From: a virus
DNA length: 64,000 nt
Virus record (IMG/VR): IMGVR_UViG_3300031949_000012
Location: 1 to 64,000 of that record
Direction: 5' to 3' (one strand)
Below are positions 6,603 through 35,627 of the stretch, piece after piece (the stretch's first letter is position 1; the number at the start of each line of letters is the position of its first letter). The notes under the pieces are model-generated. The model was not told where the DNA came from, ran no database searches, and saw nothing but the letters and a program-made list of their open reading frames with translations. The translations under genes were made by a program, and so were the position numbers.

Positions 6603-7412
6603 TTACCGGCCCAGGCTCTCCCAGTCAAAGTCCGCCCCGGCCGTCCATTCGCCAATGCAGCCGGGATGGTCATTATCATGATGAAAATGCTTCAGGTTAA
6701 TCTCCCTGGCCATGGTAGACCAGGCTGCGTCTTCCAGCCTGAGGTCGGAAAGCTTCCAGCCGTTGCCGGCCTGGGCAAAAACAATCCAGCGAGTCTCCCC
6801 GTTCATGGCCAGTTCTTCCCGAATGACGGCCGGCATCCCAATTGGGTGAACAACCAGGGTATCGCTCCTGGGCGACCACACATCCGACTTTCTGACGACG
6901 TACTTCTGGCGCTTCCCGGCCGCCTGCTCCACTTCCCCTTTATCCCCTATAGGCCGCTTGGGCCCGCCAGGCCCGCCTGCTCCCTTCTTCCCCTTAGATT
7001 TCGGCAGATGCCCCAGCCGGGCCTGCTCAAGCTCGGAGTTGGTGGTTTCCATTTCTGCGTCCAGACGTTTAGCCGCTCCAGCCACACGAGTCAAAGCCTC
7101 GGCCACAACTCCAAACTCGGCCGGGTCGAGATGGGCCAGGTCCCGACCGATAATGCCCAGCCGCTCGGCTTCGGTCGCGGCCGCCTCGGTTTCAATCTGG
7201 CGCAGGCGGGCCTCCAACTCCTGGACGGCCAAAATAACCTTATCACTTTCCGCCCGCTGCAAAACGCGGGCCCAAACCTCGGCTGCCAGGGCTTTCCAGT
7301 CGCCCAGGCCATAACCGGCCTGAGCAACCTCCTTGGCGATCTCCTCGAAACGCACCTGGTCGCCCAAAGGCAACCCATAAAAATACATCATCGCGCTAAA
7401 CTTTTCGGACAT
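6603..7412 (-). CDS. hypothetical coiled-coil protein
   Basis: long ORF; AGGAGG SD before MSEKF. Confidence 0.8.
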   Translation of the reverse strand: MSEKFSAMMYFYGLPLGDQVRFEEIAKEVAQAGYGLGDWKALAAEVWARVLQRAESDKVILAVQELEARLRQIETEAAATEAERLGIIGRDLAHLDPAEFGVVAEALTRVAGAAKRLDAEMETTNSELEQARLGHLPKSKGKKGAGGPGGPKRPIGDKGEVEQAAGKRQKYVVRKSDVWSPRSDTLVVHPIGMPAVIREELAMNGETRWIVFAQAGNGWKLSDLRLEDAAWSTMAREINLKHFHHDNDHPGCIGEWTAGADFDWESLGR

Positions 7413-7655
7413 TCTAGTATCCTCCTGTAATTTGCTCATAAAATAACTCAATGTCCCCGGTACGAGAGTCGAACTCTACGGGTGCATACCCTGGCGGGCG
7501 ATGATCGTCATCATTTTCGCGCCCTACCGGGGGGATAAGAACCCGCCCCCCGGCCTGGTCAGGGCCAGAGAACGGGCTCTCTCTCGACAAGCTCAAGACT
7601 AAAACTTTCCCAACCTTCAACCCTAATCACCTCCTCTCGACTCAACTGCTCCCCG

Positions 7656-7997
7656 TCAATCGTTTGCGGCCAAATTCTTGACTACATCTTCAAGGACGTG
7701 CCGTCCACAGACATAGCGGGCGTCGTCGTACAACTCCTTAGCCTCCTTCAAGCCGTTCATACCATCGGCCCGTAAAATCTTGATGGCGTCTATGGCCTTC
7801 CCATCGGCCAGCGCCTGGGCAAAGGCAATGGCCGCTCCTTTGACGGGCTCTGGGCCTAATCGCATGGAAATAGCAATTGGCTCAGCCTCCTCGCTGGGGT
7901 AGAGGGTCGCTGTCCCATCCCCCCAAATTGAAAGTTTCCAAGTCCCCACGTACCCACTGATTTTCAGGGTTTCATTGTCCTTTAATTCCACTAACAT
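7656..7997 (-). CDS. protein with ribosomal bL12 (L7/L12) C-terminal-like domain
   Basis: KAIDAIKILRADGMNGLKEAKELYD resembles K+.+IK.+R...G.GLKEAK.+VE. Confidence 0.6.
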   Translation of the reverse strand: MLVELKDNETLKISGYVGTWKLSIWGDGTATLYPSEEAEPIAISMRLGPEPVKGAAIAFAQALADGKAIDAIKILRADGMNGLKEAKELYDDARYVCGRHVLEDVVKNLAAND

Positions 7998-14126: not shown

Positions 14127-14280
14127 AGATGCTCCGACTATATTCTATCTCGATACCCGGTGTATCCTTAGTAGCATCTGGGAAATCAGAATTGATACTG
14201 ACTAACTCTATTCCGGTCTTTAATATAATCTCCTGAGAAAAAACAACAATAACACCCATTTCATTAGTTGGCTTAAACAT
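14110..14280 (-). pseudogene. probable remnant of a PD-(D/E)XK nuclease
   Basis: P.NE.GV+..F...FPD...IE+EY.S motif compressed into 56 aa and ending right after. Confidence 0.35.
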
Positions 14281-15013
14281 GATTATTCCCTTTCCCATTC
14301 GTTTGTTTCAGCTCGTCAAGCCAGTTGTAAACCGTTTGTCGAGAAATGCCAAACTCTTTGGCGAAGTTGCTGACCTTGACATCGGGTTGGCGCCTTGACA
14401 ATTCTTGTAGCAAAGTCGCCTTGTCAATTGACGGTGACGCACTTGTCAATTGACTGTCCAATTTGACAGCCGGTTGGACAGCCGCCAACTTGACAGCTTT
14501 CTCCGCTTCTACCCTGGCCAGCCTTACGGTGAGGTTATCTGCCTGCTGCTTCTCTTTGAGCGTGTGGCTAAAGTCTACCTCTGACACTTGCTGACTTTGC
14601 GCCTCGAACTGGTACATGGTCATTGCGACGGCAATGTAGGCGATGAGGGTCAGGAGGGAAATAACTGTAGCAATAGCAGCAAAACGGATGCTTTGTCCAA
14701 AGACCCACAGGCCAATAATTTCCAGGACAATGTACCCGGCCACCAGCCACCAGCCACGGTGGTCACGCACCGCTGCGTAAGTTGAGGCAATGCCAACAAT
14801 GATGAGCCCCAGGCCGGCTGAGAGCCCGGCGACAATGCCAAAATAATCGCTGCCGGTAAACAACATCATAAACTGATAGAAGGCAAAACCGAAAGCAATG
14901 GCCGGAGCCAGGGGCACGATCCATGAGGCAAAGCCGGCAATGCGGGCGTGGTTCAGGCGATCCCGATGGTGAATGTTCTTGATTTTCTCATTGACAAGTT
15001 GTTGATAGTTCAT
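14273..15013 (-). CDS. multi-pass membrane protein with coiled coil and C-terminal HTH (Spd/DUF2637-like architecture)
   Basis: 4 hydrophobic helices; VSNFAKEFGISRQTVYNWL HTH. Confidence 0.75.
   Translation of the reverse strand: MNYQQLVNEKIKNIHHRDRLNHARIAGFASWIVPLAPAIAFGFAFYQFMMLFTGSDYFGIVAGLSAGLGLIIVGIASTYAAVRDHRGWWLVAGYIVLEIIGLWVFGQSIRFAAIATVISLLTLIAYIAVAMTMYQFEAQSQQVSEVDFSHTLKEKQQADNLTVRLARVEAEKAVKLAAVQPAVKLDSQLTSASPSIDKATLLQELSRRQPDVKVSNFAKEFGISRQTVYNWLDELKQTNGKGNNHV
14376..14496. repeat. in-gene array of TTGACA/TGTCAA/TTGGACA half-sites
   Basis: CTTGTCAATTGAC at 14420 and 14442; TGTCCAATTTGACA 14455; further half-sites at 14376, 14395, 14474, 14490. Confidence 0.75.
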
Positions 15014-16758: not shown

Positions 16759-17004
16759 TTAGGGATAGACCTGCTGACCAGTCTTGACCTGATATACCCC
16801 AACCCCACCGCTTTCCTGTTCTCTAATTTCCCAGGCCAGGCGCGAGAAATGATGACTTCCCAACTCCGGCTCAAACGCCTGAAAAAACAAACAATCTGAG
16901 TAACACTTCTTACAGCGCCGGATGCTCAGGTTCGGGTTTACGTGCTGTACCAGGGTAATGAACTCATGCCGGCAGCGGGAATTGTTCATGATGAGCCACT
17001 GCAT
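16759..17004 (-). CDS. hypothetical protein
   Basis: ORF coupled to RNR stop. Confidence 0.55.
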   Translation of the reverse strand: MQWLIMNNSRCRHEFITLVQHVNPNLSIRRCKKCYSDCLFFQAFEPELGSHHFSRLAWEIREQESGGVGVYQVKTGQQVYP

Positions 17005-18569
17005 TATAGGGCCACCTCACAAACGCCGGTTGGACAGGCGGCGGCAATTTGAGCCTGCGCCTCTAAAACCTGCACCTGCCGGCTGCCATCCCGATAAACG
17101 GTAATCCCCTTACATCCCTTGCGCCAGGCGTACTCGATTATTTGCCGGACTTGTGCTGGTTCAGTCTCATGGGGGATATTGATGGTTTTAGATACGCCGC
17201 TGTCACAAAACTCCTGCGCTGCCGCTTGAATGTCCAGGTGTTGTTTCCAGGTGGGCTGTTTATCCACTTCGTCATTCAGGGCGGAAACGAAATAAGGCTC
17301 GCCGGCCAAATGATGCTCAAAGATGTAGCTTTCCCCCTTCTCGTCGGTGCGTTTATAGACCGGGGAGAAAATGGGTTCGATGCCATGTGAACAGTTGCCA
17401 ATGAAGGCAATAGAACCGGTCGGGGCAACCGTGGTCACGGTAATGTTTCTCCTTCCTACATGGCTGCAACTGGCCGGGATGCCTCGTTTGGCGCCTAACC
17501 ACTCTGACATCTCTCTGGCCCCCTGGTAAATGGTCTGCATTACCCTGAGCAAAACGTCAATGCTGGCCTGGCTGCCATAGGCAATCTGCATTTTGAGGTA
17601 AAGGTCGGCCAGTCCCATAAGTCCTACCCCCACTGGCCGGTGGGCCTCGTACCAGTCGCTGAATTTGTGGTTGGGGAAGATATTCTGAGAACCAACATTG
17701 TCTAAGAAGCGGGCTACAAGGCCAGCTGTCTCGAAAAGTCGGTCATAATTATAGATGAGCTTCGAGAAGTCTAAGAAGGTCTCATGAGCGACATTGATCG
17801 AGGCCAGATTGCAGCTGCCATAGCTGGGTAAAGGTTGTTCGCCGCAGGGATTAGTAGCGTTGATCTCCTCAATGTAGGGTGTCTGGTTGTTGATGGTATC
17901 ATAGAACAATAGACCAGGTTCGCCATTTTGCCAGGCATTTTGGGCAATAGTGTCCAGTAAATTGTGCCGGCCGGTAATACCATCACGCATCCACTCGTCA
18001 GTCGCCATCACCGACTGGTTAAAGTTGTGAGCAAACCGCTCATTTTTGGTTTGCTTCAGGTTGATAAATTTCTCCAGGTCCGGGTGGTCGGAACGCATAG
18101 TGTACATCAGAGCTATCTGGCGAAAGTTTCCCTGGGTGATCATATCCAAGTAGTCGCTGACCCGGATAGCCCAGTTGTTGGGCCCGTAGGCCACACCGTG
18201 GACGCTGCCACTGACCGGCGCACCTTCTGCTCGAATATGAGTGCCGGTGAACCCACATCCACCGCCGCGTTTGCCGACAGCGGCAATGTCTCCCAGGGTT
18301 TCGACGTGATGCTCAAGTTCATCTCGGTCAGGTCCGACGACGAAGCAAGCAAATAAGCCGCCGTTTCGGGCCCCGGAGTTGGCCAGACAGGGCGAATTGG
18401 GCAGCCAGACCCGCTCGCGTAAGCTGGTCCTGGCCCGCTCGATATAAGTTTCTTCTGTCTCATTCTGGCAGACGTAATCAATGACCCGATTGACGAGAAT
18501 GGGCCAGCCTTCGCCGGGGTGGTAATATCGCTGTCTGAGTAATCTTTCCACATCTGTTTCAAGTTTCAT
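17004..18569 (-). CDS. nrdJ: class II (adenosylcobalamin-dependent) ribonucleotide reductase
   Basis: PNSP.L.N, ACFV, TNPCGEQPL, CNLASIN, APTG, SKTIN, KGITVYRDGSR, C-terminal CPTGVC; no beta subunit nearby. Confidence 0.9.
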   Translation of the reverse strand: MKLETDVERLLRQRYYHPGEGWPILVNRVIDYVCQNETEETYIERARTSLRERVWLPNSPCLANSGARNGGLFACFVVGPDRDELEHHVETLGDIAAVGKRGGGCGFTGTHIRAEGAPVSGSVHGVAYGPNNWAIRVSDYLDMITQGNFRQIALMYTMRSDHPDLEKFINLKQTKNERFAHNFNQSVMATDEWMRDGITGRHNLLDTIAQNAWQNGEPGLLFYDTINNQTPYIEEINATNPCGEQPLPSYGSCNLASINVAHETFLDFSKLIYNYDRLFETAGLVARFLDNVGSQNIFPNHKFSDWYEAHRPVGVGLMGLADLYLKMQIAYGSQASIDVLLRVMQTIYQGAREMSEWLGAKRGIPASCSHVGRRNITVTTVAPTGSIAFIGNCSHGIEPIFSPVYKRTDEKGESYIFEHHLAGEPYFVSALNDEVDKQPTWKQHLDIQAAAQEFCDSGVSKTINIPHETEPAQVRQIIEYAWRKGCKGITVYRDGSRQVQVLEAQAQIAAACPTGVCEVAL

Positions 18570-18622
18570 GCTTTCTCCTTAGAATAAATTCCCTTTAATC
18601 AACATAGTGTGACATGGCCAGC

Positions 18623-18970
18623 CTATGGCGCCTTGTTGATCTGCAATCGAAATACGTAGTATTCATTGTCAGTTACTTTGCCCGGTATCAATATTGATAC
18701 GGGTAAAATGGGTTGGCTCTCTCGGTGACACTCGCCTAATAAAATGAGATTGTCCTTGATGTCGCTGACACAATCTGGATCAACTGGAATAAACTTCTCC
18801 AAACCAATAATATCTAGGTTAATCGAGTAGCCATCGAACTCGCGTACCTCGAAGGTAATAGGGAATAAGATTTCCTTACCATCTGCCAGGCGAAAACCAA
18901 GCCGTACTTGCCTACCAACCTCAATCTGATGCCGGGTAAATAGGGTCTGTGCATCTTCAAAATCTCTCAT
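18623..18970 (-). CDS. hypothetical protein
   Basis: ORF, AAGGA SD. Confidence 0.65.
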   Translation of the reverse strand: MRDFEDAQTLFTRHQIEVGRQVRLGFRLADGKEILFPITFEVREFDGYSINLDIIGLEKFIPVDPDCVSDIKDNLILLGECHRESQPILPVSILIPGKVTDNEYYVFRLQINKAP

Positions 18971-18974
18971 CGTT

Positions 18975-19511
18975 TTATCCTTTCTTTAACCAACTGAATA
19001 TTAAATCGGCCAGAGTATGGCCACTGTCTGAGAGGGACATTCCCAGCCATAAGAAGAACAAGGCCGGAAAAGTGACATATTTCTCCAAACTAAAAAGCAG
19101 CACCGGCAAGGTCAGGAACAGCACCAGCAAAGCAAAGCGGGGAAGCGTGCCGATGAAAGGCAGATGCGAAAAGAACAGCAACCGCCACGGCTGGCGCAAA
19201 GCGTAATACCAATCTCTGGCTCTTAGCCCACTTCGATGTACGATTTGCTGGCGGTACATCTCAATGCCTAATGCTTCGCTAATCTTACTTTCCCCCCCGG
19301 CAATGTCCATATCTGGATTGAAGTAGATATGGACGTACCGGCCACGACTTAACTTCGACAAGCTCAGTTTGAATCGCAAGGGGAGCGTCGCCAAAACGCC
19401 ACCCCCGGCCAGGGCTGCATACTGCGCCGGCAGCCCGGCCAGGAGACATACCCCGGCAACCAGGGGGGCCAGTCCCAGGGTGATAGCGGCGTGGCCGATA
19501 CGACCGGGCAT
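18975..19511 (-). CDS. metal-binding membrane protein (DUF2227/YdjM-like)
   Basis: MPG..H, PD.D, HR, SH.PF.GT, H..AD motifs plus TM helices. Confidence 0.7.
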   Translation of the reverse strand: MPGRIGHAAITLGLAPLVAGVCLLAGLPAQYAALAGGGVLATLPLRFKLSLSKLSRGRYVHIYFNPDMDIAGGESKISEALGIEMYRQQIVHRSGLRARDWYYALRQPWRLLFFSHLPFIGTLPRFALLVLFLTLPVLLFSLEKYVTFPALFFLWLGMSLSDSGHTLADLIFSWLKKG

Positions 19512-19871
19512 TTACTTCACCCACTTCCGGGCTTCAAGTAAGCTGATAATGTCTGCCACGCCGACTGAAGGTGAGCTTGTCGAACCTTTGTCCCCAACGA
19601 CCCTGGTCGCCTTTGGCCTCTCCGCCAGACCTTCCAGTACCTTCACCATCTCTTCAGCTGTGGGAGTGTTGATGTTTCGCTTGATGTTAGCGGCATAGTT
19701 GATGAGGGCAACAATGCCGCTAGCTATAGCCAGAAATGCGGCCGGTAAGACGCTGCCCACTTCATCTACAATGGTCTGGTCAAAGCCAATGAGACTGAGA
19801 AGTATGTATACCACGATAGCGACTCCATTGAAAATTGTCAGCTTGTTCCGGTAAAAATCCTTAGTTGTCAT
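19512..19871 (-). CDS. small 2-TM membrane protein (holin-like or FtsK partner)
   Basis: MTTKDFYRNKLTIFNGVAIVVY... two hydrophobic helices. Confidence 0.6.
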   Translation of the reverse strand: MTTKDFYRNKLTIFNGVAIVVYILLSLIGFDQTIVDEVGSVLPAAFLAIASGIVALINYAANIKRNINTPTAEEMVKVLEGLAERPKATRVVGDKGSTSSPSVGVADIISLLEARKWVK

Positions 19872-21156
19872 CACCTGTTTCTCCTTTTTGAATAAAGGCC
19901 GGTGGGCTTTGCTGCCACTTGCCGGCTGAGATAAATTGTCTGAGCAGATCATAGCTCTGCTCAGGTCTGACTTTAAGAGTGTACGCCTGGCCTTTGGCGG
20001 TCGGCGCTTCCAAGATGGACGCATTAGCGTAGTTGCGGTAATAAACGGTGACATCAGCTGGTGAAAGCTCGCTTGAGCCTTTTTTGGCAATCTTATTGAT
20101 GCCGGGCAAACTGGCGCCTACTCTGAGTCCAGCAATGACCTGCCCCAAGAAATGAACCCGCTTATCTTCAATGCCTCTAGCCGAAAGCACCCCAAAGATA
20201 ACCCGGTCTACATCACCGGGCAAATTTACCCGCATCATTTTGCCAAACTGTAGTCCCCGTCTCCCTGGCTCGCGTAACAGGAACTCGCCGGGCTGTTGTG
20301 GTAATCTCTCCCCTCGCTGGGGTCGTCTCCGAAAAATGACATCAAAGGGGGTATCGCCATCTACGTGAAAACCAATCTTTCGGTCCATGTTATTGGTGAT
20401 AGCTGCATCAATTACGTCGGAGCGAGGGTGCTGCGTAGCCAGAAGTAGTGTCCCCCTAGAACGAAGTTTCTGAGCTAGCGTAATCAGCGTTGATTTAGAC
20501 CAGCTTTTCAAATGCCGGTCGTGAACCTGCGTGGTCAGGGCAGCTGCTTCGTCAATGACCACCAAGATATGCCGGCCCTTTTTACCATAATGGGCGGTGC
20601 GGGCCAGTTCATCCAATATCTCAATCGCCTGCTGAATGTTCCCGTCGCCGGTAAGAGAGATATAGTGGACGCCCGGAATAGAGCCCCACAAATGGAGAAA
20701 GTCTTCTTCTTCGCCCTTGAGGTCAAACAGATAAACCTCACAGACGTTGGTAAAAGCTGTGCCTTTGGCGAAAAGCTGAGTCATAATCAGGTTGATGAAG
20801 TTGGTCTTACCAAAGCCGGTCATTCCGGCGACCAGGGTGTGGTGACGGGCTAAATCAATCCGAATGGCTCTCTCTCCGGCGTGAGAGAGCACCACTTCCA
20901 GCGGCTTCAGCCGGAAACGGCTGATGTAATCTACTGGGCTTTCAATGGGCATTAGCACCCGGCGCGGAGTATTAGTTCGCTCTGCTTTGCGGCGTAAATA
21001 GCGATGGGTTGTAGCCAGAGCGATGCGCCGGGCGACCATCACTGTACCGAAAAGGATATAGAATAGGGGCACCAGAAGCGACAAATGGTTGCCACTGAAT
21101 ACCCGCAGCCCGATTTCAACCAGACCGAAAAGCCATAGAACGGTTGTCAGTTCCAT
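19861..21156 (-). CDS. membrane-anchored FtsK/SpoIIIE/TraB-like ATPase
   Basis: 2 N-terminal TMs; HTLVAGMTGFGKT Walker A; DLKG; VVIDEAA Walker B; LLLATQHP; PGEFL. Confidence 0.85.
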   Translation of the reverse strand: MELTTVLWLFGLVEIGLRVFSGNHLSLLVPLFYILFGTVMVARRIALATTHRYLRRKAERTNTPRRVLMPIESPVDYISRFRLKPLEVVLSHAGERAIRIDLARHHTLVAGMTGFGKTNFINLIMTQLFAKGTAFTNVCEVYLFDLKGEEEDFLHLWGSIPGVHYISLTGDGNIQQAIEILDELARTAHYGKKGRHILVVIDEAAALTTQVHDRHLKSWSKSTLITLAQKLRSRGTLLLATQHPRSDVIDAAITNNMDRKIGFHVDGDTPFDVIFRRRPQRGERLPQQPGEFLLREPGRRGLQFGKMMRVNLPGDVDRVIFGVLSARGIEDKRVHFLGQVIAGLRVGASLPGINKIAKKGSSELSPADVTVYYRNYANASILEAPTAKGQAYTLKVRPEQSYDLLRQFISAGKWQQSPPAFIQKGETGDDN

Positions 21157-21429
21157 TTACTTATCTTCCTTTATAGGCCCACTCCAATTTGTAATTGTTA
21201 TCGGAGCAGCTTTTGCTGACATTGGATAACAATAAAACCAATGTCCTTGAGCAATGATTAGTCCTGGCCATTTATCATCCAGGTATTTTGGTGTATGGTT
21301 CATCATAATCAGATCGCCGGCCGGTGAAATAATGGCTATATCGGCCAGAACGCGCAAATAATCATGGCTTGCAACTGTTGTTTTTATGCCAATCAACCAT
21401 TCTTTCCCATATCCATATTCTTCACTCAT
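21157..21429 (-). CDS. hypothetical protein
   Basis: ORF, GAGG SD. Confidence 0.6.
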   Translation of the reverse strand: MSEEYGYGKEWLIGIKTTVASHDYLRVLADIAIISPAGDLIMMNHTPKYLDDKWPGLIIAQGHWFYCYPMSAKAAPITITNWSGPIKEDK

Positions 21430-21655
21430 GATCTTCCTCTTGGTCTATAAATGGCGGATGGAAATACCACCAGGGAATATCTCTCCTTATCCGACAATGG
21501 GGTAGAATTGGTTTAGGGCGCTGCGTTATAGCAGCAAGTATCTTTTTTTGATAGGGGAGAAGTTTAATGGATTCCATCTCGCCTGTCTCCTTATTCTTCA
21601 TACAGCAATAATTTTCAATAAGCTCGGTTAATGATATGTCTGATAAGTCATTCAT
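21422..21655 (-). CDS. mini-protein resembling terminase large subunit N-terminus
   Basis: IENYCCMKNKETGEMESIKLLPYQKKIL vs TerL IENFCWIERKETREILPFIPYDWQWDIL. Confidence 0.55.
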   Translation of the reverse strand: MNDLSDISLTELIENYCCMKNKETGEMESIKLLPYQKKILAAITQRPKPILPHCRIRRDIPWWYFHPPFIDQEEDHE

Positions 21656-22323
21656 GCTCCATCTCCTAAGAGGAATCTTCTGTCCCACATCTCCTGCATA
21701 AGTAATTGTACCTTCCAGGGTGGCATAGTCCCGGAATTGCCGATTTCTCGGAGTTCCCGGCTTAGCTGCACCAGGGGTAAATCTTCTTCTATCTCCTTGT
21801 GCGGTGGTGAACCGGCTACATTTAGGATTGCCTTTTCTAGCTGCGCCGGCACTAGCCGGTTCTCGACTACGAATTTTCCCTGATGAGTGATGACTGTCCG
21901 CCTGACTTTTTGGCCGGTCAACCAGCGCCAGACGATAGCCCAGGTCGGCTCGAAACTGGTTGGTACTGGGTCATTAGTGCTGATAGGGATAGACTTCTTA
22001 GCGTAGTTGTAGAACCCGGTGAATTTGTAATATACCCCGCCCGCCCGGTACTCGTATTCGGTGACGACGTGGATTTCGTGCTTCCAGTTGAGCAAATGGA
22101 ATAGGAAATAGAATAGACCGGGAATACAAAGCAGGAGCAATACCCAGGCTCGTTCCCATTCTGTCCAGCGCCACAAATCATAGACGAAACAGGCCCACAG
22201 GAACGCTCCACCCAGACCCAGGGCTGCTTCGGCCACAACCTCAAGACCCAGGTGACGACACCAGAACTGCACCAGCTGGCCCTCACCTATTTCTTTGCGG
22301 ATGCGGGTAGGAAGTGTGCTCAT
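21652..22323 (-). CDS. 2-TM membrane protein with soluble C-terminal (bPH-like) domain
   Basis: R.H, two TMs, W....+VT, K.+G pattern. Confidence 0.6.
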   Translation of the reverse strand: MSTLPTRIRKEIGEGQLVQFWCRHLGLEVVAEAALGLGGAFLWACFVYDLWRWTEWERAWVLLLLCIPGLFYFLFHLLNWKHEIHVVTEYEYRAGGVYYKFTGFYNYAKKSIPISTNDPVPTSFEPTWAIVWRWLTGQKVRRTVITHQGKFVVENRLVPAQLEKAILNVAGSPPHKEIEEDLPLVQLSRELREIGNSGTMPPWKVQLLMQEMWDRRFLLGDGA

Positions 22324-22631
22324 ATAGCAACCTCGTCTGGGGGAATGACCTTGGCCCCGGTCAAGATAATCCGGCCGATGTAACGCCGGCCTTCTTTATT
22401 TTCCAGTATTTCAATCAGGCCGTGCTCCTGCAGCCGGTCTAAAGCGCGGCTGATAGTTACCGGGCTGATGGGCTGTCCGCCTCTTTGAGAGGCCAGGTAA
22501 TCGGCAATCTCCTGCAAATAGGGCGCATTACCCATCTTTTCTAGCCAAAACCAGACAACGTATTGGTAGACCTGGTTATCAAACTCCCGAAATTTCCCCT
22601 CTGCCGGGTATAGCTCCTCAAATAAGCTCAT
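22320..22631 (-). CDS. LexA-like winged-helix DNA-binding protein
   Basis: G.AP.+.EIA..L....S..T+.R.L..L...GLI. Confidence 0.75.
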   Translation of the reverse strand: MSLFEELYPAEGKFREFDNQVYQYVVWFWLEKMGNAPYLQEIADYLASQRGGQPISPVTISRALDRLQEHGLIEILENKEGRRYIGRIILTGAKVIPPDEVAI

Positions 22632-23071
22632 CTATTCCTGCCTCGTAATATGTAGTGAACGCCGTGAAACATCCCGCTTCTGCGTTTGCCCTTGAAAAGA
22701 ACTTCACTCCGAATGTCCTGATTTCGAGCAAATTCCAGGGCGACCTGGTAAACTTCGTCCGTTGAAAAGAGACTTTCCTTGTAGCCGGTTACAGGCAGTT
22801 CAGCTATCCCGGCCCAAAAGATACCGGCAATGAACAATCGGGCCTGGTTGGATTTCCAGGCCGCCCGCATGGCCCGGTAGACTTGCACATGGACATAACC
22901 GCCTTTCTCGTGAGCAACTTGTACTATCTCTTTCAAGGCTACCGGCCAGCTGCGCCGATCTTTGTATGCGCCCAGTATCCAACTCCAAATTAGATGCAGC
23001 TTGGGGGACATCACCGGCTCGTAGAAAGCATCATTGATGCGTATTTCTATCAGATCGCCCGGTAAACGCAT
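22628..23071 (-). CDS. hypothetical protein
   Basis: ORF, coupled. Confidence 0.65.
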   Translation of the reverse strand: MRLPGDLIEIRINDAFYEPVMSPKLHLIWSWILGAYKDRRSWPVALKEIVQVAHEKGGYVHVQVYRAMRAAWKSNQARLFIAGIFWAGIAELPVTGYKESLFSTDEVYQVALEFARNQDIRSEVLFKGKRRSGMFHGVHYILRGRNR

Positions 23072-23130
23072 CTGGTAGAAATAATCGAATGGCTTATATC
23101 CGCCGCCTAGTTCACGCCGGGCGCGTTGTT

Positions 23131-23649
23131 CTAAAGTTCCACCGAAGATTGAAGGAATCGGATGTCCCCCCCGTCTGTGATATAGTCTTCACCCTCTTTG
23201 AGCCCCAGTACGTCCAGGGCTTGCCAGGGGGTCTCGACGATGTGGTAGGGTACGCCCACGCTTACAAATCCATTCCGGCACTTCTCCTCACCCTCGGTCA
23301 AGGTCCAGCGGTTTTCTGGGTTCTTGATTTCAACGATATACAGCTGTCCTCGAAAGCCAACCAGGATGTCAAAGGAATTTTCAAGCCGGTGGGTGTCTAA
23401 AACGTAGGCTCCGGCGCGGTCTAAAATCTTCACAATGTCTGGTTGGTTCTTATCTATCTTGGCGGCTCGACGCATTAAGTTTTCAAAGCTCCGTTTGATG
23501 TAAAGCTGGAACGAGTAGGAAAAGCTGGAGAGATAATATCCCTTTCTTTCTCTCAGGCCGGGGTTTTCGATGAACCAGGCTTCAATCAGTTCTTTGGTTG
23601 CGCCCGGCTGTGCTCTTAAGTAATCTATCAGCACCTCATCGTCTTTCAT
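23131..23649 (-). CDS. VRR-NUC/PD-(D/E)XK endonuclease (Holliday junction resolvase-like)
   Basis: RRAAKID.NQ..IV..L...G; D+LVGFRG...VEIKN; LT..E. Confidence 0.75.
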   Translation of the reverse strand: MKDDEVLIDYLRAQPGATKELIEAWFIENPGLRERKGYYLSSFSYSFQLYIKRSFENLMRRAAKIDKNQPDIVKILDRAGAYVLDTHRLENSFDILVGFRGQLYIVEIKNPENRWTLTEGEEKCRNGFVSVGVPYHIVETPWQALDVLGLKEGEDYITDGGDIRFLQSSVEL

Positions 23650-23773
23650 TGGCCTTGGTCCTGTTGCTGATAAGCAGGGCGACTATGCCCAAGCCGACTA
23701 AACTGGCCAGTACGCCAAATCCAAAGGCCAGAATGATAACTGCGGTTAAACTGAGACAAATTGTACTTTCCAC
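23636..23773 (-). CDS. 45-aa membrane peptide
   Basis: hand translation; GGAGG SD, GTG start, long hydrophobic stretch. Confidence 0.6.
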   Translation of the reverse strand: MESTICLSLTAVIILAFGFGVLASLVGLGIVALLISNRTKANERR

Positions 23774-23785
23774 ATCCACCTCCGC

Positions 23786-23831
23786 GAAAATCAATTATCG
23801 CTATTGTACTCTACTTCGCACTGTCTGTCAA
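23786..23831 (-). promoter_or_regulatory. leftward sigma70 promoter plus operator over its start site
   Basis: TTGACA(23831-26)-17-TACAAT(23808-03); GAAAATCAATTATC 23786-23799. Confidence 0.8.
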
Positions 23832-23854
23832 GGGCTTCGATAAATTCTGCCTGA

Positions 23855-23883
23855 TTGACAGGATAATGGTTTTCCGGTATTAT
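23855..23883 (+). promoter_or_regulatory. rightward sigma70 promoter for packaging operon
   Basis: TTGACA-17-TATTAT; 16 bp identical to reverse complement of 11284-11299. Confidence 0.8.
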
Positions 23884-23906
23884 GTTCATAGTGAGTATGT
23901 CGAACT

Positions 23907-24380
23907 ATGATAATAGACTTGACGGATGAGCAAATAAAGCGGCTAGAAGATTATTACGTCTCAACTCCTGGGGCAACCTTATCCACTCTGGCTGCAGAGG
24001 CAAAGGCGCTAATTGGCCGGGAGGTGGACCGTTCTACGCTGAAAGGGCACTCAGGCAAGAGGCGCTGGGGCGTCATGAAGAAACGCTTCCAGATGGGTAA
24101 ATCCTCTTTGCCAGAAAGTGTGGGTGAGGAAGCAGATGATTTGAGAACGATTGTCTATGACAAAATAATGGACCCTGATGATCCCCCCTCAGTCCAGGAA
24201 CTGACTACCCTCATTGCTTCCTGGCAAAAACTACAAGAAGTTGCCCCCAGAACACGCAGCGCCAAAACCCCCCGCGAACAGGCGATTGCGGCAGCCCAAA
24301 AGGCTACCAGAAATGTAGTTCGTTTTCGCAAGGCCCGTGACCAGGAGCCGCCCAATGGCGCAGCTGACGATAACAAATGA
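23907..24380 (+). CDS. terS: terminase small subunit (putative)
   Basis: N-terminal HTH ending RRW, position directly before TerL. Confidence 0.65.
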   Translation: MIIDLTDEQIKRLEDYYVSTPGATLSTLAAEAKALIGREVDRSTLKGHSGKRRWGVMKKRFQMGKSSLPESVGEEADDLRTIVYDKIMDPDDPPSVQELTTLIASWQKLQEVAPRTRSAKTPREQAIAAAQKATRNVVRFRKARDQEPPNGAADDNK

Positions 24381-26151
24381 ACTGCTCCTGAATATGGGTG
24401 ACGAGAACCTGGTCGAAGCTGACTATGAGTTCATCTGGTCTAACGTTGGCCTTGACTACGAAAGCGAACTGAAACCATCTCAAATCGAAGAAATCGTTGC
24501 CTGTACCCTCGATTGCCGGTACTTTATCGAGAATTTCTGCTGGATTGAGCGTAAAGAAACCAGGGAGATTTTGCCTTTCATCCCTTATGACTGGCAATGG
24601 GATATTCTGGAACGACTGCAAAATGGAGAGTCACTTGTCATCAACAAGTCGCGTCGGGTCGGTATTTCCTGGGCTATAGCTGCCTATACTGCCTGGCTGA
24701 CTAATTTCTCCGAAGGGGCGCACGTTCTTTTTCTTTCGCGTACGGAAAATGACGCGAAAAAATTGCTGCGTAAAGTCAAGTTTATCCTCAGAAACCTGGC
24801 CTATCACGACGCCGACCACATCCGGGATGCAACCCCGGCCAGTTTTTTGATGGGCGATGTCGAAACTGATAACCAGCAATTTTTCTCCATCAAGTTCCGC
24901 GATGACAGCGGAAATACGGCCGGCTTCTCGGCGGCCGAGAGCCTGACGATGACTGTTGACGCCGGCCGGAGTGAAGGGCCGACGCTGGTCTTTTGGGATG
25001 AAGCGGGGTTTGCCAAGCCTAACGATGAGGCTACCTGGTCGGCTCTCATGCCGACTACGACCCGTGGCAGCCAGATGGTCGTGGCCTCAACGCCGAACGG
25101 CGTTGGCGGGGTGTTCTGGGGGCTAGTCCGAGATGGCCAGCGTGGGGCTAATTCCTGGTATCATTATCGCTTCATCCATTGGTCTGAAGCAGGGATGAGC
25201 CAGGAGCAAGTAGACCGGGTACGTGATGCTCTGAAGATGACCAATGAAATGTATCTTCAGGAATTTGAGGGGCAGTTCATCCAGCCCGGTACAAGAGTCT
25301 TTGATGCGACCTATCTGGATGCTTGTTACCGGCCTTTTGACCGCTACCCGGAAGTCAAGGATTACCTGGAACAGTATGACTATAATACCGGGCGCTATTA
25401 TCTTGGGGTGGATAGCGGCACCGGCTCTTACCACAAGAAGCGTATCCCAGACGAGAACGTTTTCCTCGCTGTGACCCGGCATGGCGTAGTCGCTTACGTT
25501 GAGCACAACCGAAAGCTCTTGGGAGACTGGGCTGGCAAGCCTATTACTATGGCTGACGGTACGACCGGCTGGCAGCAGGGGCAAGTTTCCAAACTTCATG
25601 CTGAATGGCCGGGGATTATGTATATCGAGAAGAAGATTGGCGGTGATACGGTTATCAATAACTACCAGGCCCCCGGAGACGGGCAAAGTCTGATGATCCC
25701 GGTCAACCCAGACAACAAATCTATCAGCCGAATTATGGGCAATCTCATTCTGGCAGTTGAGGGGTCGCAGGTTATCATCACCGATGATACCCTTTACCAG
25801 CAGATGTATGACATCCAACGGGGGACGCAGCCGGGTACATACTCGCCCCCGGATGGGGGTAGCAAGGACGTTTTGATGGCTTTTGCCTGGGCGTATGACG
25901 CTCTGCTGACTTATGGCGGCGAGGCTATCCCGGAGCAATTCAGATTACCTGATCCGAACCGGCCTTCGGCTACTGGAAGTTTTAGCCTGCCTATTCTCCA
26001 ATACTTGCCGGGAATGAGCACACCTTTGAATGTCCAGCACTTGCGCCAAACTGATATGATGGAAGGGCCAGGAAGACTGCCTGTACCTACAATCAATGCC
26101 CCGGTGCCGGTGACGAATTTAGATGGCTACCGGCCCAGGGACCGCTTTTAA
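24355..26151 (+). CDS. terL: terminase large subunit
   Basis: Q motif (YDWQ), KSRRVGIS Walker A, FWDEAGF Walker B, ASTPNG motif III, QEFEGQF, LGVD nuclease, D..MA..W. Confidence 0.92.
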   Translation: MAQLTITNELLLNMGDENLVEADYEFIWSNVGLDYESELKPSQIEEIVACTLDCRYFIENFCWIERKETREILPFIPYDWQWDILERLQNGESLVINKSRRVGISWAIAAYTAWLTNFSEGAHVLFLSRTENDAKKLLRKVKFILRNLAYHDADHIRDATPASFLMGDVETDNQQFFSIKFRDDSGNTAGFSAAESLTMTVDAGRSEGPTLVFWDEAGFAKPNDEATWSALMPTTTRGSQMVVASTPNGVGGVFWGLVRDGQRGANSWYHYRFIHWSEAGMSQEQVDRVRDALKMTNEMYLQEFEGQFIQPGTRVFDATYLDACYRPFDRYPEVKDYLEQYDYNTGRYYLGVDSGTGSYHKKRIPDENVFLAVTRHGVVAYVEHNRKLLGDWAGKPITMADGTTGWQQGQVSKLHAEWPGIMYIEKKIGGDTVINNYQAPGDGQSLMIPVNPDNKSISRIMGNLILAVEGSQVIITDDTLYQQMYDIQRGTQPGTYSPPDGGSKDVLMAFAWAYDALLTYGGEAIPEQFRLPDPNRPSATGSFSLPILQYLPGMSTPLNVQHLRQTDMMEGPGRLPVPTINAPVPVTNLDGYRPRDRF

Positions 26152-31818: not shown

Positions 31819-32590
31819 AAGTCAGCTAATCAATATGCCAGATTTATGGTTCAGGGAAAATACAATGGACCATCTTATATTCGAGCAAGTCTGGCTGCGT
31901 GACGAGTATAAAGTGCGCCCAATTTTACCGTTCCTACATGATGACTATAACATTGTAGATATTGGCGCTCACGCCGGTTACTTCACCCGGTTTGTGCTGG
32001 AACATAGTCGGGCCAGAGTTATCGCCTTTGAGCCGCATTGGGAGAATTACCAATTGGCTTATCTGAACAATGAGAAGTTCATCAAAGAAGGGCGCTGTTT
32101 TCTCTATAACCTGGCTGTGAGCCGTTCAGATGTCTCTACTCCCCAGTGGTTGAGTTATGAGAATAAGCAAATCTGGACTGAGGGGGCTAATACAGGCGGG
32201 TTTACCCTCTTTCCGCTGACTTCAGCATTGAGCGGTGAATATGTTCGGGTACTGGCCGTTGGTCTGGATGCTATCATTAAAACCTTTGGCTCGATTAACC
32301 TGCTCAAGATTGATGCTGAAAGCGGCGAATGGCCAGCCTTGCTGACTTCCAAACATCTTTCGGACATCTCTATGATCGTGGGGGAATACCACGAAATGGG
32401 TGGCGTTTATGATGAGCACGATCCAGGCGTCTTTTGCTTGAGCTACCCACAGCTGACGGTTAAGATATTGCAAAAGCATCTGAAGCAATATGGTTTCAAC
32501 TACTTTCTCTTTGACCGGATGATTAAACCTCATCCAAACCTGGGGCATTTCTACGCTCGAAAGGAAGCCGATGCTCTCTATCTATTGTGA
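31805..32590 (+). CDS. FkbM-family SAM methyltransferase
   Basis: VDIGAHAGYF, AFEP..EN, LLKIDAESGE, GEYH. Confidence 0.9.
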   Translation: MKLVKSQLINMPDLWFRENTMDHLIFEQVWLRDEYKVRPILPFLHDDYNIVDIGAHAGYFTRFVLEHSRARVIAFEPHWENYQLAYLNNEKFIKEGRCFLYNLAVSRSDVSTPQWLSYENKQIWTEGANTGGFTLFPLTSALSGEYVRVLAVGLDAIIKTFGSINLLKIDAESGEWPALLTSKHLSDISMIVGEYHEMGGVYDEHDPGVFCLSYPQLTVKILQKHLKQYGFNYFLFDRMIKPHPNLGHFYARKEADALYLL

Positions 32591-33386
32591 AACCGATAAC
32601 GTTTCGCTTACCATCTACCGTATTATCAGCCAGGTCAAGCAGACTGCGCCATCTAATATTCAATTCGTCAAAGCTATTGAAGACGCGGACTATGCTATTC
32701 TGACAGCTATTGGCATTGATGGGGTGAAGGAGTTCATAGATCGGCTGCCCTGCATCTTACTACAGCTATGCCACAAAACAGCCGGCCCACAGGAGTTTTG
32801 GGACTATGCTTGGAGCAAGGCGAAGCTGGTGGGCAGCTATTATGACCTGAAGCCACCCTGTCCTTACGTACGCTTTCCGGTTGGCTTTGATGAGAAAGTC
32901 TTCTACAATAATTTTAATGGTGCGTGGAAGGAGCGACCTTATCCTTGCGCTGTGACCGGCCGGGTAGACGGACCAGAGGAAATTCGCTCCGTCTATGACG
33001 GTTTTGGCGTTGTGGTTCATCTGGGACGTGACTTTCGCTATGGACCAGGCTATATCCATTTCAACACCTTGACCGATGACGAGATGCGTGGCGTCTATTC
33101 CCGAAGCCAGTATGTGGCTGGACTAAGGCACATCGAAGGGTTTGAGCTGCCGATTATCGAGGGAGCGGCCTGTGGCTGCCAGCCGATTGCCTTTGATATG
33201 CCCTGCTACCGCTATTGGTTCGATGACTTTGCTACATTTATCCAGCCTAATCTACCGGTGACAGCACAGTTAGAACGCATCAGTCGGGAGAAACCATATC
33301 GGGAAATCAAGCCAGAGCACCTGGAGCGGTTTAAGCTCCACAATGCCTGGGCGCCGTTTTGGGACGCTTTTTTGGAGGTGGTTTGA
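32571..33386 (+). CDS. GT-B glycosyltransferase
   Basis: EGFELPIIEGAACGC EX7E motif. Confidence 0.85.
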   Translation: MLSIYCETDNVSLTIYRIISQVKQTAPSNIQFVKAIEDADYAILTAIGIDGVKEFIDRLPCILLQLCHKTAGPQEFWDYAWSKAKLVGSYYDLKPPCPYVRFPVGFDEKVFYNNFNGAWKERPYPCAVTGRVDGPEEIRSVYDGFGVVVHLGRDFRYGPGYIHFNTLTDDEMRGVYSRSQYVAGLRHIEGFELPIIEGAACGCQPIAFDMPCYRYWFDDFATFIQPNLPVTAQLERISREKPYREIKPEHLERFKLHNAWAPFWDAFLEVV

Positions 33387-33493
33387 CACTTGATTTCTGG
33401 TTTGGTTTTCTTTGTGCGGGTGCGTTGGCGATTGTTTTCCTGGCCGGGTACACGTTCTATCTGGCCTACTATTTCTATAAAAGTTTGGAGTGA
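33383..33493 (+). CDS. 36-aa membrane peptide
   Basis: hand translation MTLDFWFGFLCAGALAIVFLAGYTFYLAYYFYKSLE; GGAGG SD, fills gap exactly. Confidence 0.55.
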   Translation: MTLDFWFGFLCAGALAIVFLAGYTFYLAYYFYKSLE

Positions 33494-33495
33494 CT

Positions 33496-34152
33496 ATGGA
33501 TGTTGTGATTATTGGTACGGGCGGTATGGCTAAAGAAATTTGGGGGTTATGCCAGATAACAGGTTATCGTGTCTTGGGGTTTGTTTCCGAACAGGCTGAT
33601 TACCAGGACATGTTTATGGGCTTGCCGGTCTTGAGTTCAGACCACGAATGGCTAAGAGCAAGACGGAAAAACTGTGTCATTGCTAATGGCTCACCGGCTA
33701 TCCGGCGCAAAATTGCCCAATTTTATCAGGATTCTGCGCATCATTTTCCGCATATTGTCCCAGTCGAGGCTATTATTTTGACCCACCTGAAAGAGATCGG
33801 CAATGGTACAAGCATTATGCCGGGTGGGGTCATTCAGCCTGAAGTCTCCCTGGGCGCGTTTGTTCATATCAACATGGGCGTTACCATCGGCCATGATGTA
33901 ACGATTGGCGATTATTCGGTGGTGAACCATAATGCTGGAATTTCTGGTAATGTTACCATTGGTGAGGGAGTGCTGATAGGGGCCGGGGCGACGATTATCG
34001 AAGGGCATACCATTGGCGACTGGGCGATTGTTGGGGCCGGGGCGGTGGTGACGAGAAGTATTCCGGCCGGCGAAACCTGGGTTGGTGTTCCGGCCAAGCC
34101 GATGGAAAAGGAGCGCATTTCTTTTGCTGAACTTTACAATATCAACGAATGA
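33496..34152 (+). CDS. NeuD/PglD-family sugar acetyltransferase
   Basis: IIGTGGMAKE Rossmann start, hexapeptide repeats, GHD, VGVPAK. Confidence 0.9.
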   Translation: MDVVIIGTGGMAKEIWGLCQITGYRVLGFVSEQADYQDMFMGLPVLSSDHEWLRARRKNCVIANGSPAIRRKIAQFYQDSAHHFPHIVPVEAIILTHLKEIGNGTSIMPGGVIQPEVSLGAFVHINMGVTIGHDVTIGDYSVVNHNAGISGNVTIGEGVLIGAGATIIEGHTIGDWAIVGAGAVVTRSIPAGETWVGVPAKPMEKERISFAELYNINE

Positions 34153-34756
34153 GCTCTGGCAGCCGGAAAATACCGGCTACGTCCGGTATATCTTATCCCT
34201 GCTGGAAGCTGACCCACATACCGCAAACATCCTTGCCATGATGGACCAAAAGGTTGTTTCTATCTGCCCATTGTTGGCTTATTTGGCTATGGAAAACAAT
34301 CTTGCCAGCTATATGGAGCTAGGTGTCCGGCGTGGCTTTTCAATGGCCATGATTGCCGGGCGCAGGCCATTCTGTCACCTGGTTGGTTTTGATAAATGGG
34401 AAGCTGACTATGGTAAAGCTCCAAACCCTGGGCCTGATTTCGTGAGGACAGAACTGGCGAAAGTGGGGTATATCGGCAAATTGGAACTCATTACCGGCGA
34501 TACGGTTGAAACCTTGCCTCAGTACAAGCCAAAGGCTCTATTCTCCCTTATTCTGGTGGATGCGGATCATACCCAGGAAGGTGTCTACAAAGATATTCTA
34601 AATGCTATCCATTTCCTGCATCCAGAAGGGGTGATGATTGTGGATGATCTGCAAGATAAGGATGTGAGAGCCGGTTTCGACCGGGCTGTTTCACTCATCC
34701 GGTTAGCTCATTGGAAACAGGACCGGGTAGGAGCGATATATTTTGAACCAGTCTAA
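34082..34756 (+). CDS. class I SAM methyltransferase (Methyltransf_24-like); start uncertain
   Basis: ELGVRRGFS, GDT, VDADH, G.++VDD. Confidence 0.85.
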   Translation: MVFRPSRWKRSAFLLLNFTISTNELWQPENTGYVRYILSLLEADPHTANILAMMDQKVVSICPLLAYLAMENNLASYMELGVRRGFSMAMIAGRRPFCHLVGFDKWEADYGKAPNPGPDFVRTELAKVGYIGKLELITGDTVETLPQYKPKALFSLILVDADHTQEGVYKDILNAIHFLHPEGVMIVDDLQDKDVRAGFDRAVSLIRLAHWKQDRVGAIYFEPV

Positions 34757-35468: not shown

Positions 35469-35507
35469 CTGTCCAATTTTGGACAGCTATATTCGACGGG
35501 CTCAATA

Positions 35508-35543
35508 CAAAAAGTCCCTGGCTGCCGGTCCAGGGACTTTTTG
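35508..35543. terminator. bidirectional intrinsic terminator between convergent GT genes
   Basis: CAAAAAGTCCCTGG-8nt-CCAGGGACTTTTTG. Confidence 0.85.
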
Positions 35544-35627
35544 CTTCTCAGGAGGTCCAACAAAACAAAAAGGAGGAAAACAATGTTTACGGGCTAAATT
35601 ATATATGATGGTTACATATCTGTCAAG

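Follow-up and report, generated by a model that had tools for sequence, protein, structure and literature searches.

Here we describe a conserved set of early genes that, judged from sequence, encodes a membrane dsDNA translocase and belongs to the core early genes of a clade of tailed phages. The set comprises an FtsK/SpoIIIE-type ATPase and two membrane proteins, one of 223 aa with two predicted transmembrane helices and one that is DUF2227-like. It is a genuine module, hitherto undescribed, and it probably works as an inner-membrane dsDNA translocase. It was found in a stretch of 64,000 nucleotides of the IMG/VR virus record IMGVR_UViG_3300031949_000012 (the window), where the original prediction had placed a possible TraB/Spd-like system for moving DNA between cells. 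The predicted open reading frames were confirmed on the minus strand at 18975-22323. The operon contains the following features:

18975..19511, minus strand: DUF2227-like protein, 178 aa; weak match to DUF2227, relatives carry PF09988
19512..19871, minus strand: small protein with two transmembrane segments, 119 aa; 11-nt overlap with the ATPase stop
19861..21156, minus strand: FtsK/SpoIIIE-type ATPase, 431 aa; profile and structure matches
21157..21429, minus strand: 90-aa protein between the ATPase and the 223-aa gene
21422..21688, minus strand: 88-aa protein (77 aa if the inner ATG is the start)
21652..22323, minus strand: 223-aa partner protein with two transmembrane helices
22320..22631, minus strand: winged-helix (Crp/MarR-like) DNA-binding protein, 103 aa, directly upstream of the 223-aa gene
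22628..23071, minus strand: 147-aa protein in the overlapping operon, no assigned family
23131..23649, minus strand: 172-aa protein, first gene of the operon; C-terminal half nuclease-like
23803..23831, minus strand: sigma70-like promoter for the operon, TTGACA-17-TACAAT, 11/12

From 23071 down to 18975, successive start and stop codons abut or overlap. Two divergent sigma70-like promoters, each with 11/12 matches, lie at 23803-23883, the plus-strand one facing terS, and this pair makes co-transcription of the operon plausible. The genes for TerL, TerS and the portal adjoin the module on the opposite strand. TerL (24337-26151) is a T4-like terminase; packaging is already served, as had been noted. 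The membrane-HTH gene (14273-15013) had been counted in the same transcription unit. It lies 4 kb beyond the module and behind a promoter-like site of its own (15521-15492, 11/12), which makes its membership uncertain.

The ATPase narrowly passes the PF01580 cut-off of 24 bits, at 24.1, and matches phrog_1358 ('FtsK/SpoIIIE-like') at 8e-23; PF01580 is matched by 48 of 64 family members, the best at 2.9e-19. Profile searches of the PDB returned TcpA (8e-15) and FtsK (6.5e-11). With Foldseek the order was TcpA (1.5e-9), FtsK (5.3e-8), EccC (1.9e-6), HerA (1.8e-5) and VirB4 (2.1e-5), so that TcpA and FtsK lead HerA and VirB4 by three to four orders of magnitude, and matches to DUF87 and HerA_C are confined to the Walker A region. 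By sequence and predicted structure, the protein belongs on the FtsK/TcpA side of the superfamily and not with HerA and VirB4, the grouping that the original prediction had named as counting against it.

Two N-terminal hydrophobic segments are predicted at residues 3-21 and 24-42, and such helices are present in 62 of the 64 family members. About 60 residues separate the second helix from Walker A. The protein has a single RecA-like motor with Walker A K117, Walker B D202/E203 and an ATQxP motif; K117 and E203 are invariant in the family, and D202, R232 and Q242 nearly so. The C-terminal domain of ~110 aa (about residues 315-415) is assigned a winged-helix fold by three routes and had no sequence match in the PDB. 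Together these features support, from sequence and models, the predicted layout of a membrane anchor, one FtsK-type motor and a C-terminal winged helix, which is the architecture of TraB and FtsK and agrees with the original description of the protein.

The recognition helix of this domain is highly conserved across divergent phages, and a common protein or structural ligand would fit that conservation as well as DNA would. An ATPase that does not pump DNA, and instead exports protein in the manner of EssC and the type VII secretion system (T7SS) or anchors replication at the membrane without translocation, could make use of such a helix, and EccC/EssC come next among the structural matches. 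We consider this most unlikely. EssC and EccC have two or three tandem FtsK-like ATPase domains and FHA domains, whereas the phage protein has a single motor and no FHA domain, and its scores against the EssC/EccC models are 15-18 bits where the cut-offs are 346-778. No EssB/EccB-type or other T7SS partner genes were found among the proteins scanned, the FtsK and TcpA matches are two to three orders of magnitude better than EssC, and the C-terminal fold is of the DNA-binding winged-helix type.

About 69 clusters, gathered at E<1e-30 and all full length at about 400-470 aa, make up a distinct family around the ATPase, and a sharp score gap separates this family from generic FtsK. In a phylogenetic tree whose backbone is unresolved, the family forms its own clade (SH-aLRT 92). 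TcpA, TcpB and two other matches form a separate clade (SH-aLRT 99). The Streptomyces plasmids were represented by a 534-aa FtsK-like protein (L092) rather than by a bona fide TraB, and this protein falls outside the phage family. FtsK-like genes of mycobacteriophages and Bacillus phages group with cellular FtsK, apart from the family.

The comparison with cellular FtsK and SpoIIIE gives a similar picture. The phage ATPase has in common with them the beta-domain motor with Walker A/B and ATQxP, an N-terminal membrane anchor and a C-terminal winged helix. It is about 430 aa long against 750-1350 aa, has two transmembrane helices and not four, and lacks the long linker and the alpha domain. Indeed, neither PF17854 (alpha) nor PF09397 (gamma) was matched, whereas the cellular FtsK proteins compared (P0008-P0012) carry both, and the winged helix resembles that of FtsK at the fold level only.

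The 223-aa protein, the ATPase and the DUF2227-like protein occur together, in fixed gene order, in 5/5 related phage contigs, and none of 88 control loci with generic FtsK-like ATPases carries either partner. The association of these genes across related phages that the original prediction called for is thus borne out. The count covers five IMG/VR contigs, apart from those of the nearest protein relatives (P0002, P0003, P0023). The controls came from a metagenome scan with the ATPase alignment; the scan keyed on Walker B patterns of a generic kind, and all the loci it gave were distant FtsK-like ones. In each of the five phages the ATPase gene has the 223-aa homologue upstream of it, as its immediate neighbour in L086, L087 and L101, and the DUF2227-like homologue 1-9 kb downstream. 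Parts of the module are separated by unrelated genes in L001 and L101. The five phages have TerL in common (1e-69 to 1e-110) and mostly the portal, and in every one of them the module heads the operon that diverges from terS. By sequence, the phages of this uncultured lineage are tailed and large (74-100 kb), and their terminases are T4-like.

This conservation bears on whether the module acts on DNA other than the phage's own, excluding superinfecting phage DNA or displacing or exporting the host chromosome during takeover. Predicted early expression at the membrane would fit such a role, and the ATPase has partial matches in a defence library (mad8 6e-12, HerA 1e-8), mainly over the P-loop region. 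Exclusion genes are usually accessory and variable, whereas this module belongs to the core genes, and its synteny is kept between phages whose TerL proteins share only about 38% identity. No known defence architecture was matched, and the 223-aa and DUF2227-like partners had no PADLOC match. Action on foreign or host DNA therefore appears very unlikely. Expression from the first early operon and retention in every relative suggest instead that the module acts on the phage's own genome.

The 223-aa protein is predicted to have a cytoplasmic N-terminus, two transmembrane helices, a beta-rich cytoplasmic domain and a helical tail. The overlapping reading frames, transmembrane counts and divergent promoters make the proposed set of co-transcribed membrane partners plausible. 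The label 'bPH-like' given to this protein is a tentative one; no bPH Pfam match was found in seven members and there was no PDB match. The leads come from a language model and a low-confidence structure; among named Atlas clusters, bPH_7, PH_40, bPH_6 and DUF2244 come nearest (scores 0.90-0.91, TM about 0.4, poor model). The beta-rich domain possibly has a PH-like fold.

The 178-aa protein is a polytopic membrane protein that matches DUF2227 at E 6.5e-4 and 20.2 bits, below the cut-off of 25; its relatives P0019-P0021 carry PF09988. Across seven sequences, H7, PDxD 66-69, HR 92-93, SH 115-116, D162, H165 and D169 are invariant, and the protein appears to be of a DUF2227-like or metal-binding hydrolase-like kind. 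No solved relative was found in the PDB search.

In the mechanism we propose, a two-helix hairpin would anchor the ATPase and leave its FtsK-type motor on the cytoplasmic side. On the model of FtsK, SpoIIIE, TraB and TcpA, the ATPase would form a hexameric ring that pumps dsDNA at the expense of ATP, and its winged helix would bind DNA or a partner. The linkage of the three genes suggests that their products interact, with the 223-aa protein as membrane partner or adaptor of the ATPase. In the same membrane, the DUF2227-like protein may contribute, through its conserved His and Asp sites, a hydrolytic or channel-associated activity that depends on metal. Early in infection, the set would work at the cytoplasmic membrane on the genome of the phage itself.

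The direction of pumping admits several readings. A pump owned by the phage might move the genome across the membrane without a virion, by export through septa or cell junctions, or might pull the genome in after the tail has opened the way; that it does one or the other is quite possible, if short of likely. Our leading guess, a tentative one, is ATP-powered completion of genome entry. A T4-like terminase usually means headful packaging and permuted ends, so the early operon would not always be first to enter, which weakens the idea of import. After entry, the next candidate is that the genome is held or segregated at the membrane or septum.

Such segregation or retention of a non-integrated genome, with phage DNA cleared or moved at division septa, or into spores, in a carrier or pseudolysogenic state, has been suggested before, for Bacillus phages with FtsK/SpoIIIE genes (PMC8597652). 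It is also consistent with the putative DnaA-box clusters remarked in the original prediction. No relaxase, VirB4, integrase or partition gene was recognised among the module proteins and roughly 40 other phage proteins scanned, nor was a repressor/integrase set found among the phage proteins scanned. The lack of an integrase suits a non-integrated genome, whereas the lack of partition genes or a repressor/integrase set argues against a maintained one. Scans of 185,579 species genomes with a 223-aa family motif, and with the SHxPxxGTLPR motif of the DUF2227-like protein written as degenerate DNA, were empty; these two motif-based scans thus gave no prophage copy and no clue to the host. The family also stands apart from the Bacillus-phage and mycobacteriophage genes that cluster with cellular FtsK, and segregation leaves the role of the two membrane partners unexplained. 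We regard it as unlikely.

The genes in question are annotated in the cluster J mycobacteriophage LittleE (gp198) and in the Bacillus phages Beyonphe (gp231) and A16R4. ATPases of this type are 25-30% identical to the window ATPase over the motor. Their genes have RDF/repressor or replication genes as neighbours, and neither the 223-aa nor the DUF2227-like partner accompanies them. Phage FtsK-like genes are often annotated, none to our knowledge with an established function. Our literature search found suggestions only and no FtsK-like phage gene with a characterised function.

The best solved match of the phage ATPase, by profile and by Foldseek, is TcpA of the Clostridium perfringens plasmid pCW3 (PDB 6o1w-6o1z), a conjugative coupling protein. 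Both have two N-terminal transmembrane helices followed by one FtsK-type nucleotide-binding domain, but TcpA lacks the C-terminal winged helix. TcpA works with the relaxase TcpM, the VirB4-like ATPase TcpF, TcpC/D/E/H and a peptidoglycan hydrolase, and in pCW3-type plasmids it is flanked by tcpM, tcpD, tcpE and the VirB4-like ATPase. These companion families were not found among the phage proteins scanned.

The original proposal was of spread independent of virions, in which the pump would drive the phage genome across septa, or from cell to cell, in a host that grows as filaments or a mycelium. The carriers of TraB, which moves dsDNA between cells, are conjugative plasmids or AICEs of mycelial actinomycetes, whereas the carrier here is a tailed phage with its own terminase. 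The likeness in architecture stands: TraB is a membrane-associated FtsK-like motor with a C-terminal wHTH that recognises the 8-bp direct repeats of the cis-acting clt locus (PMC4447253), and the phage ATPase has the same membrane association, single motor and winged helix. The operons are also alike, with overlapping small membrane-protein genes and a wHTH gene just upstream, as in traR-traB-spd (PMC4447253). TraB does without a relaxase and a type IV secretion system, and neither turned up among the phage proteins scanned. The match to TcpA and the co-occurrence of the module genes also favour such transfer.

Other observations speak against such transfer. The family joins neither TcpA nor the Streptomyces plasmid protein in the tree, and the 223-aa and DUF2227-like partners lack a known Spd counterpart. 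No clt-like cluster of at least three short (8-bp) direct repeats was found in 17000-24400, weak evidence given that the motif sought is undefined. Strand-polar 7/8-mers were only Shine-Dalgarno words, with no polar guide words, in a search of low power in 95 kb. In both transmembrane hairpins the predicted periplasmic loops are ~5-10 residues, so that nothing would reach the peptidoglycan or a neighbouring cell, and the module has neither a peptidoglycan-binding part nor a peptidoglycan hydrolase. A gene set that is core and early throughout a lineage of ordinary tailed phages is more in keeping with a role in the normal course of infection than with an accessory function in spread. Spread without virions is possible but unlikely as the leading reading, and in its TraB/Spd-like form we find it very unlikely.

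Cell division, sporulation and conjugation in Gram-positive bacteria all make use of FtsK-type pumps anchored in the membrane. We know of no description of genome transport in tailed phages by an export pump or an ATP-driven pull-in motor. The phages described here retain a separate compact ATPase family and two dedicated membrane partners though they already own a terminase. Should the module prove to pump phage DNA at the membrane of the host, then entry, retention or spread of the genome would gain a step driven by an enzyme. This bears on the old questions of how long genomes finish entry and whether phage DNA moves without virions, and the defined three-gene set is accessible to experiment.

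We asked whether a dispersed 13-bp motif, TGAGYNNRTCGAA, might be a recognition site for the winged helix, and rejected it as a polar guide. It has seven plus-strand and five minus-strand copies; many fall after the stop codon of one gene and ahead of the following start, and the relatives have none. Among the neighbouring genes, about 20 other early proteins of the phage gave no Pfam or PHROGs match, and the 90-aa protein has no homologue among the related phages. The 119-aa protein has two predicted transmembrane segments; a 62-aa protein of the same kind takes its position in L086, a position not conserved in the other relatives. A wHTH gene occupies the place of the 103-aa gene, upstream of the 223-aa homologue, in L086, L087 and L101. 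The first gene of the operon has a homologue in L086 (E 1.6e-9), and the 88-aa protein weakly resembles the N-terminal end of TerL from L001.

The window covers the first 64 kb of one 95,289-bp contig that carries an exact 127-bp repeat at its ends (1-127 and 95163-95289). Because the ends overlap by these 127 bp, the contig is a circular assembly and represents a complete phage genome. From 23907 onward the plus strand encodes terS, a T4-like terL, the portal and the structural genes, among them a 2765-aa ORF of tape-measure size. Two sigma70-like promoters lie back to back at 23803-23883, from where the operon containing the module diverges on the minus strand. The coordinates (18975-22323) and gene list of the module in the original prediction are correct, and from 23071 to 18975 successive stop and start codons abut or overlap.

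Genes of the module operon, in order, and the adjacent terminase gene
Gene 1, minus strand: 172 aa, nuclease-like
Gene 2, minus strand: 147 aa
Gene 3, minus strand: 103 aa, winged helix-turn-helix (wHTH)
Gene 4, minus strand: 223 aa
Gene 5, minus strand: 88 aa
Gene 6, minus strand: 90 aa
Gene 7, minus strand: 431-aa ATPase
Gene 8, minus strand: 119 aa
Gene 9, minus strand: 178 aa (DUF2227-like)
Gene 10, minus strand: 115 aa
Gene 11, minus strand: class II ribonucleotide reductase
24337-26151, plus strand: T4-like terL, the terminase gene next to the module operon

Linkage was followed in five IMG/VR contigs of 32-100 kb with a member of the ATPase family, namely the window phage and the related phages L001, L086, L087 and L101. 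The ATPases of the related phages are 26-40% identical to that of the window, and their TerL matches have E values of 1e-69 to 1e-110. A homologue of the 223-aa protein is encoded upstream of the ATPase in all five phages, and in L086, L087 and L101 it directly adjoins the ATPase gene or overlaps it by 8-25 nt. Downstream of the ATPase, and on its strand, all five also encode a DUF2227-like homologue, which is 1-1.3 kb away in four and 9 kb away in L101 because of an insertion of glycan genes. The operon is divergent from terS/terL in every case, and a wHTH gene is found just upstream of the 223-aa gene in four of the five. The remaining operon genes are not conserved among these phages, and in L001 dUTPase, exonuclease-like and methylase-like genes are interposed in the module. 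At 88 loci whose FtsK-like ATPases are more distant, neither partner was present. The original prediction implied that these genes should occur together in related phages; the triad of 223-aa protein, ATPase and DUF2227-like protein does so (5/5, with partners in 0/88 controls) and is thus a conserved core of the phage lineage, in which it is as conserved as the terminase.

Other regions of the related contigs differ from the window. Homologues of the glycosyltransferase/methyltransferase island of the window (32571-36338) are located at 12095-18082 of L101, between the genes for the ATPase and the DUF2227-like protein, and this different placement indicates that the island is mobile within the lineage. 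The portal ORF is 1479 aa in L101 versus 900 aa in the window. In L001, positions 6896-7685 of the same early operon, slightly upstream of the module, encode two small TM proteins and a 140-aa cell-wall-hydrolase-like protein, a set that by eye looks like a lysis cassette.

The 431-aa ATPase matches the PHROG 'FtsK/SpoIIIE-like protein' (8e-23) and scores at the cut-off for PF01580. Against solved structures, the family profile is closest to TcpA, the FtsK-like coupling protein of pCW3 (8e-15), followed by FtsK motors (~1e-10). The AlphaFold model (pLDDT 70; the structure models used here are of moderate confidence) gives the same order in Foldseek, with TcpA (E 1.5e-9) ahead of FtsK (E 5e-8), EccC/EssC (E about 1e-6 to 1e-5) and HerA and VirB4 (E about 2e-5). 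Since HerA and VirB4 trail TcpA and FtsK, the ATPase is not of the HerA/VirB4 type, an affiliation that the original prediction had named as contrary to it. Two N-terminal helices (3-21 and 24-42) are followed by an Arg/Lys run, which places the motor on the cytoplasmic side; helices of this sort occur in 62 of 64 family members. All TM assignments come from a simple hydropathy scan.

The C-terminal ~110 residues are predicted to adopt a winged-helix fold. The structure neighbours in the Atlas, a structure-cluster resource, are MarR, Rrf2 and PadR, and every top Foldseek match of a domain-only model is a GntR, MarR or ArsR wHTH (E from 8e-3 upward). An independent aligner returned GntR, Crp and Cdt1 winged helices (Z 6-7.5, rmsd 2.3-3.7 Å, 60-85 residues). 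These scores are middling but unanimous, and the three comparisons bear out at the fold level the wHTH-sized extension proposed earlier. No sequence-level match to FtsK gamma was found in this domain with Pfam or the PDB profile.

A word-indexed search recovered only six relatives of the ATPase, and an exhaustive profile search recovered ~69 family clusters at E<1e-30. These are 380-470 aa each and align end to end; beyond them the matches fall off steeply to FtsK-like proteins of the generic kind. PF01580 is matched by 48 of 64 members, and K117 (Walker A) and E203 (Walker B) are invariant. A tree was built with TcpA, TcpB, a Streptomyces plasmid FtsK-like protein, LittleE gp198, two Bacillus-phage FtsK-like proteins and cellular FtsK as references, no verified TraB being among them, and a VirB4-like protein as outgroup. 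The family groups with three relatives of 495-505 aa in a clade separate from the rest (SH-aLRT 92), TcpA and TcpB make up a second one (SH-aLRT 99), and the known phage FtsK-like genes (mycobacteriophage LittleE gp198 and those of Bacillus phage) group with cellular FtsK (SH-aLRT 92); the backbone of the tree lacks resolution. The ATPase belongs neither to FtsK proper nor to the TcpA-type coupling proteins, EssC or HerA/VirB4. The next-best protein matches after the family (P0087-P0090, P0095 and P0097) are giants that span 2400-3075 aa and contain 6-9 FtsK-type domains in tandem; in P0088, PF01580 is found in 7 stretches.

The 223-aa protein begins with a basic N-terminus, followed by two TM helices with a loop of ~10 residues between them, a cytoplasmic domain rich in beta structure and a helical tail. 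Its earlier description as a 2-TM bPH-like protein holds for the helices, and its nearest named Atlas clusters are bPH_7, PH_40, bPH_6 and DUF2244, but no Pfam or PDB profile match supports bPH, which we regard as a reasonable lead. The 178-aa protein is polytopic, and H7, PDxD, HR, SHxP, D162, H165 and D169 are retained throughout the seven sequences compared; PF09988 is detected in its relatives, its own score being below the cut-off. The 119-aa 2-TM protein has a positional counterpart in L086 only. The window (14273-15013) and L087 (11542-12219) each encode a protein in which four TM helices precede an HTH at the C-terminus, and in L087 its gene lies inside the module, between those for the ATPase and the DUF2227-like protein; the HTH alone aligns (33% over 45 aa).

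By analogy with FtsK, SpoIIIE, TraB and TcpA, the module probably works as a membrane DNA pump, and its features suggest a hexamer that pumps dsDNA and is held on the cytoplasmic side of the membrane. The first early operon would supply this pump together with a membrane partner of its own and a membrane protein that resembles a metal enzyme. Packaging is not the task of the ATPase, since the phage has TerL, as recognised previously. Nor is the module a type IV or type VII system, because it has a single motor domain and no relaxase, VirB4, VirB6 or EssB-type partner was found among the phage proteins scanned. The original prediction was of TraB-like spread, in which the phage genome is moved between cells without a virion. 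The architecture is apt and that part stands; however, no cluster of short direct repeats like clt, the cis-acting 8-bp repeat locus of TraB, was found at 17000-24400, no polar (strand-biased guide) words were found in the genome, the hydropathy scan gave no periplasmic or peptidoglycan-binding parts in the module, and the host lends no support. We consider such spread improbable.

Motif scans with the 223-aa family and the DUF2227-like motif found no cellular copies in 185,579 species genomes, and the phage proteins scanned included no recognisable integrase or partition gene. Both results count against a role in prophage maintenance, although weakly, because most early proteins are orphans with no Pfam or PHROG match. 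Together with the pump features, they lead us to prefer a role early in infection, in which the module would act at the membrane on the DNA of the phage itself. Our leading guess is that it powers the completion of genome entry. This idea is attractive because the genome is long and the tail is ~400 nm, as inferred from the tape measure, and it is weakened by the T4-like terminase. Terminases of this type usually produce permuted ends.

The ATPase family and its partner genes are apparently undescribed, as no description of them was found in the literature. Phage FtsK-like genes appear as annotations only, with suggested roles in sporulation (PMC8597652).

Among the products of the second early arm (genome 64001-95289; loci L082 and L083) are SbcC/SbcD-like proteins, a 5'-3' exonuclease, DUF5131, an RNA ligase and a methylase. 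This arm yielded no recognisable DNA polymerase or initiator, and only a faint DnaB-like match. The 88-aa protein of the module operon (21422-21688) is weakly similar to the N-terminus of L001 TerL (phmmer E 3.8e-4). The 13-bp word TGAGYNNRTCGAA has 12 exact copies in the genome versus ~0.2 expected (window 2164, 5327, 13479, 13688, 19354, 19572, 23892, 35492, 43077 and 53029; genome 84457 and 86482), and is not present in the loci of the four related phages. Several copies are placed after one stop codon and before the start codon that follows (23892, before terS; 53029; 13688; 84457), and 13479/13688 and 19354/19572 are inverted pairs spaced ~210 bp apart. GGAGGAA, from the strong Shine-Dalgarno word (A)GGAGGAA, was counted by genome segment (1-23750, 23750-66000 and 66000-95162). 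It has 6 and 18 coding-strand copies in the two minus-strand early arms but is nearly missing, with 2 copies, from the structural arm on the plus strand, which suggests that ribosome-binding sites differ between early and late genes.
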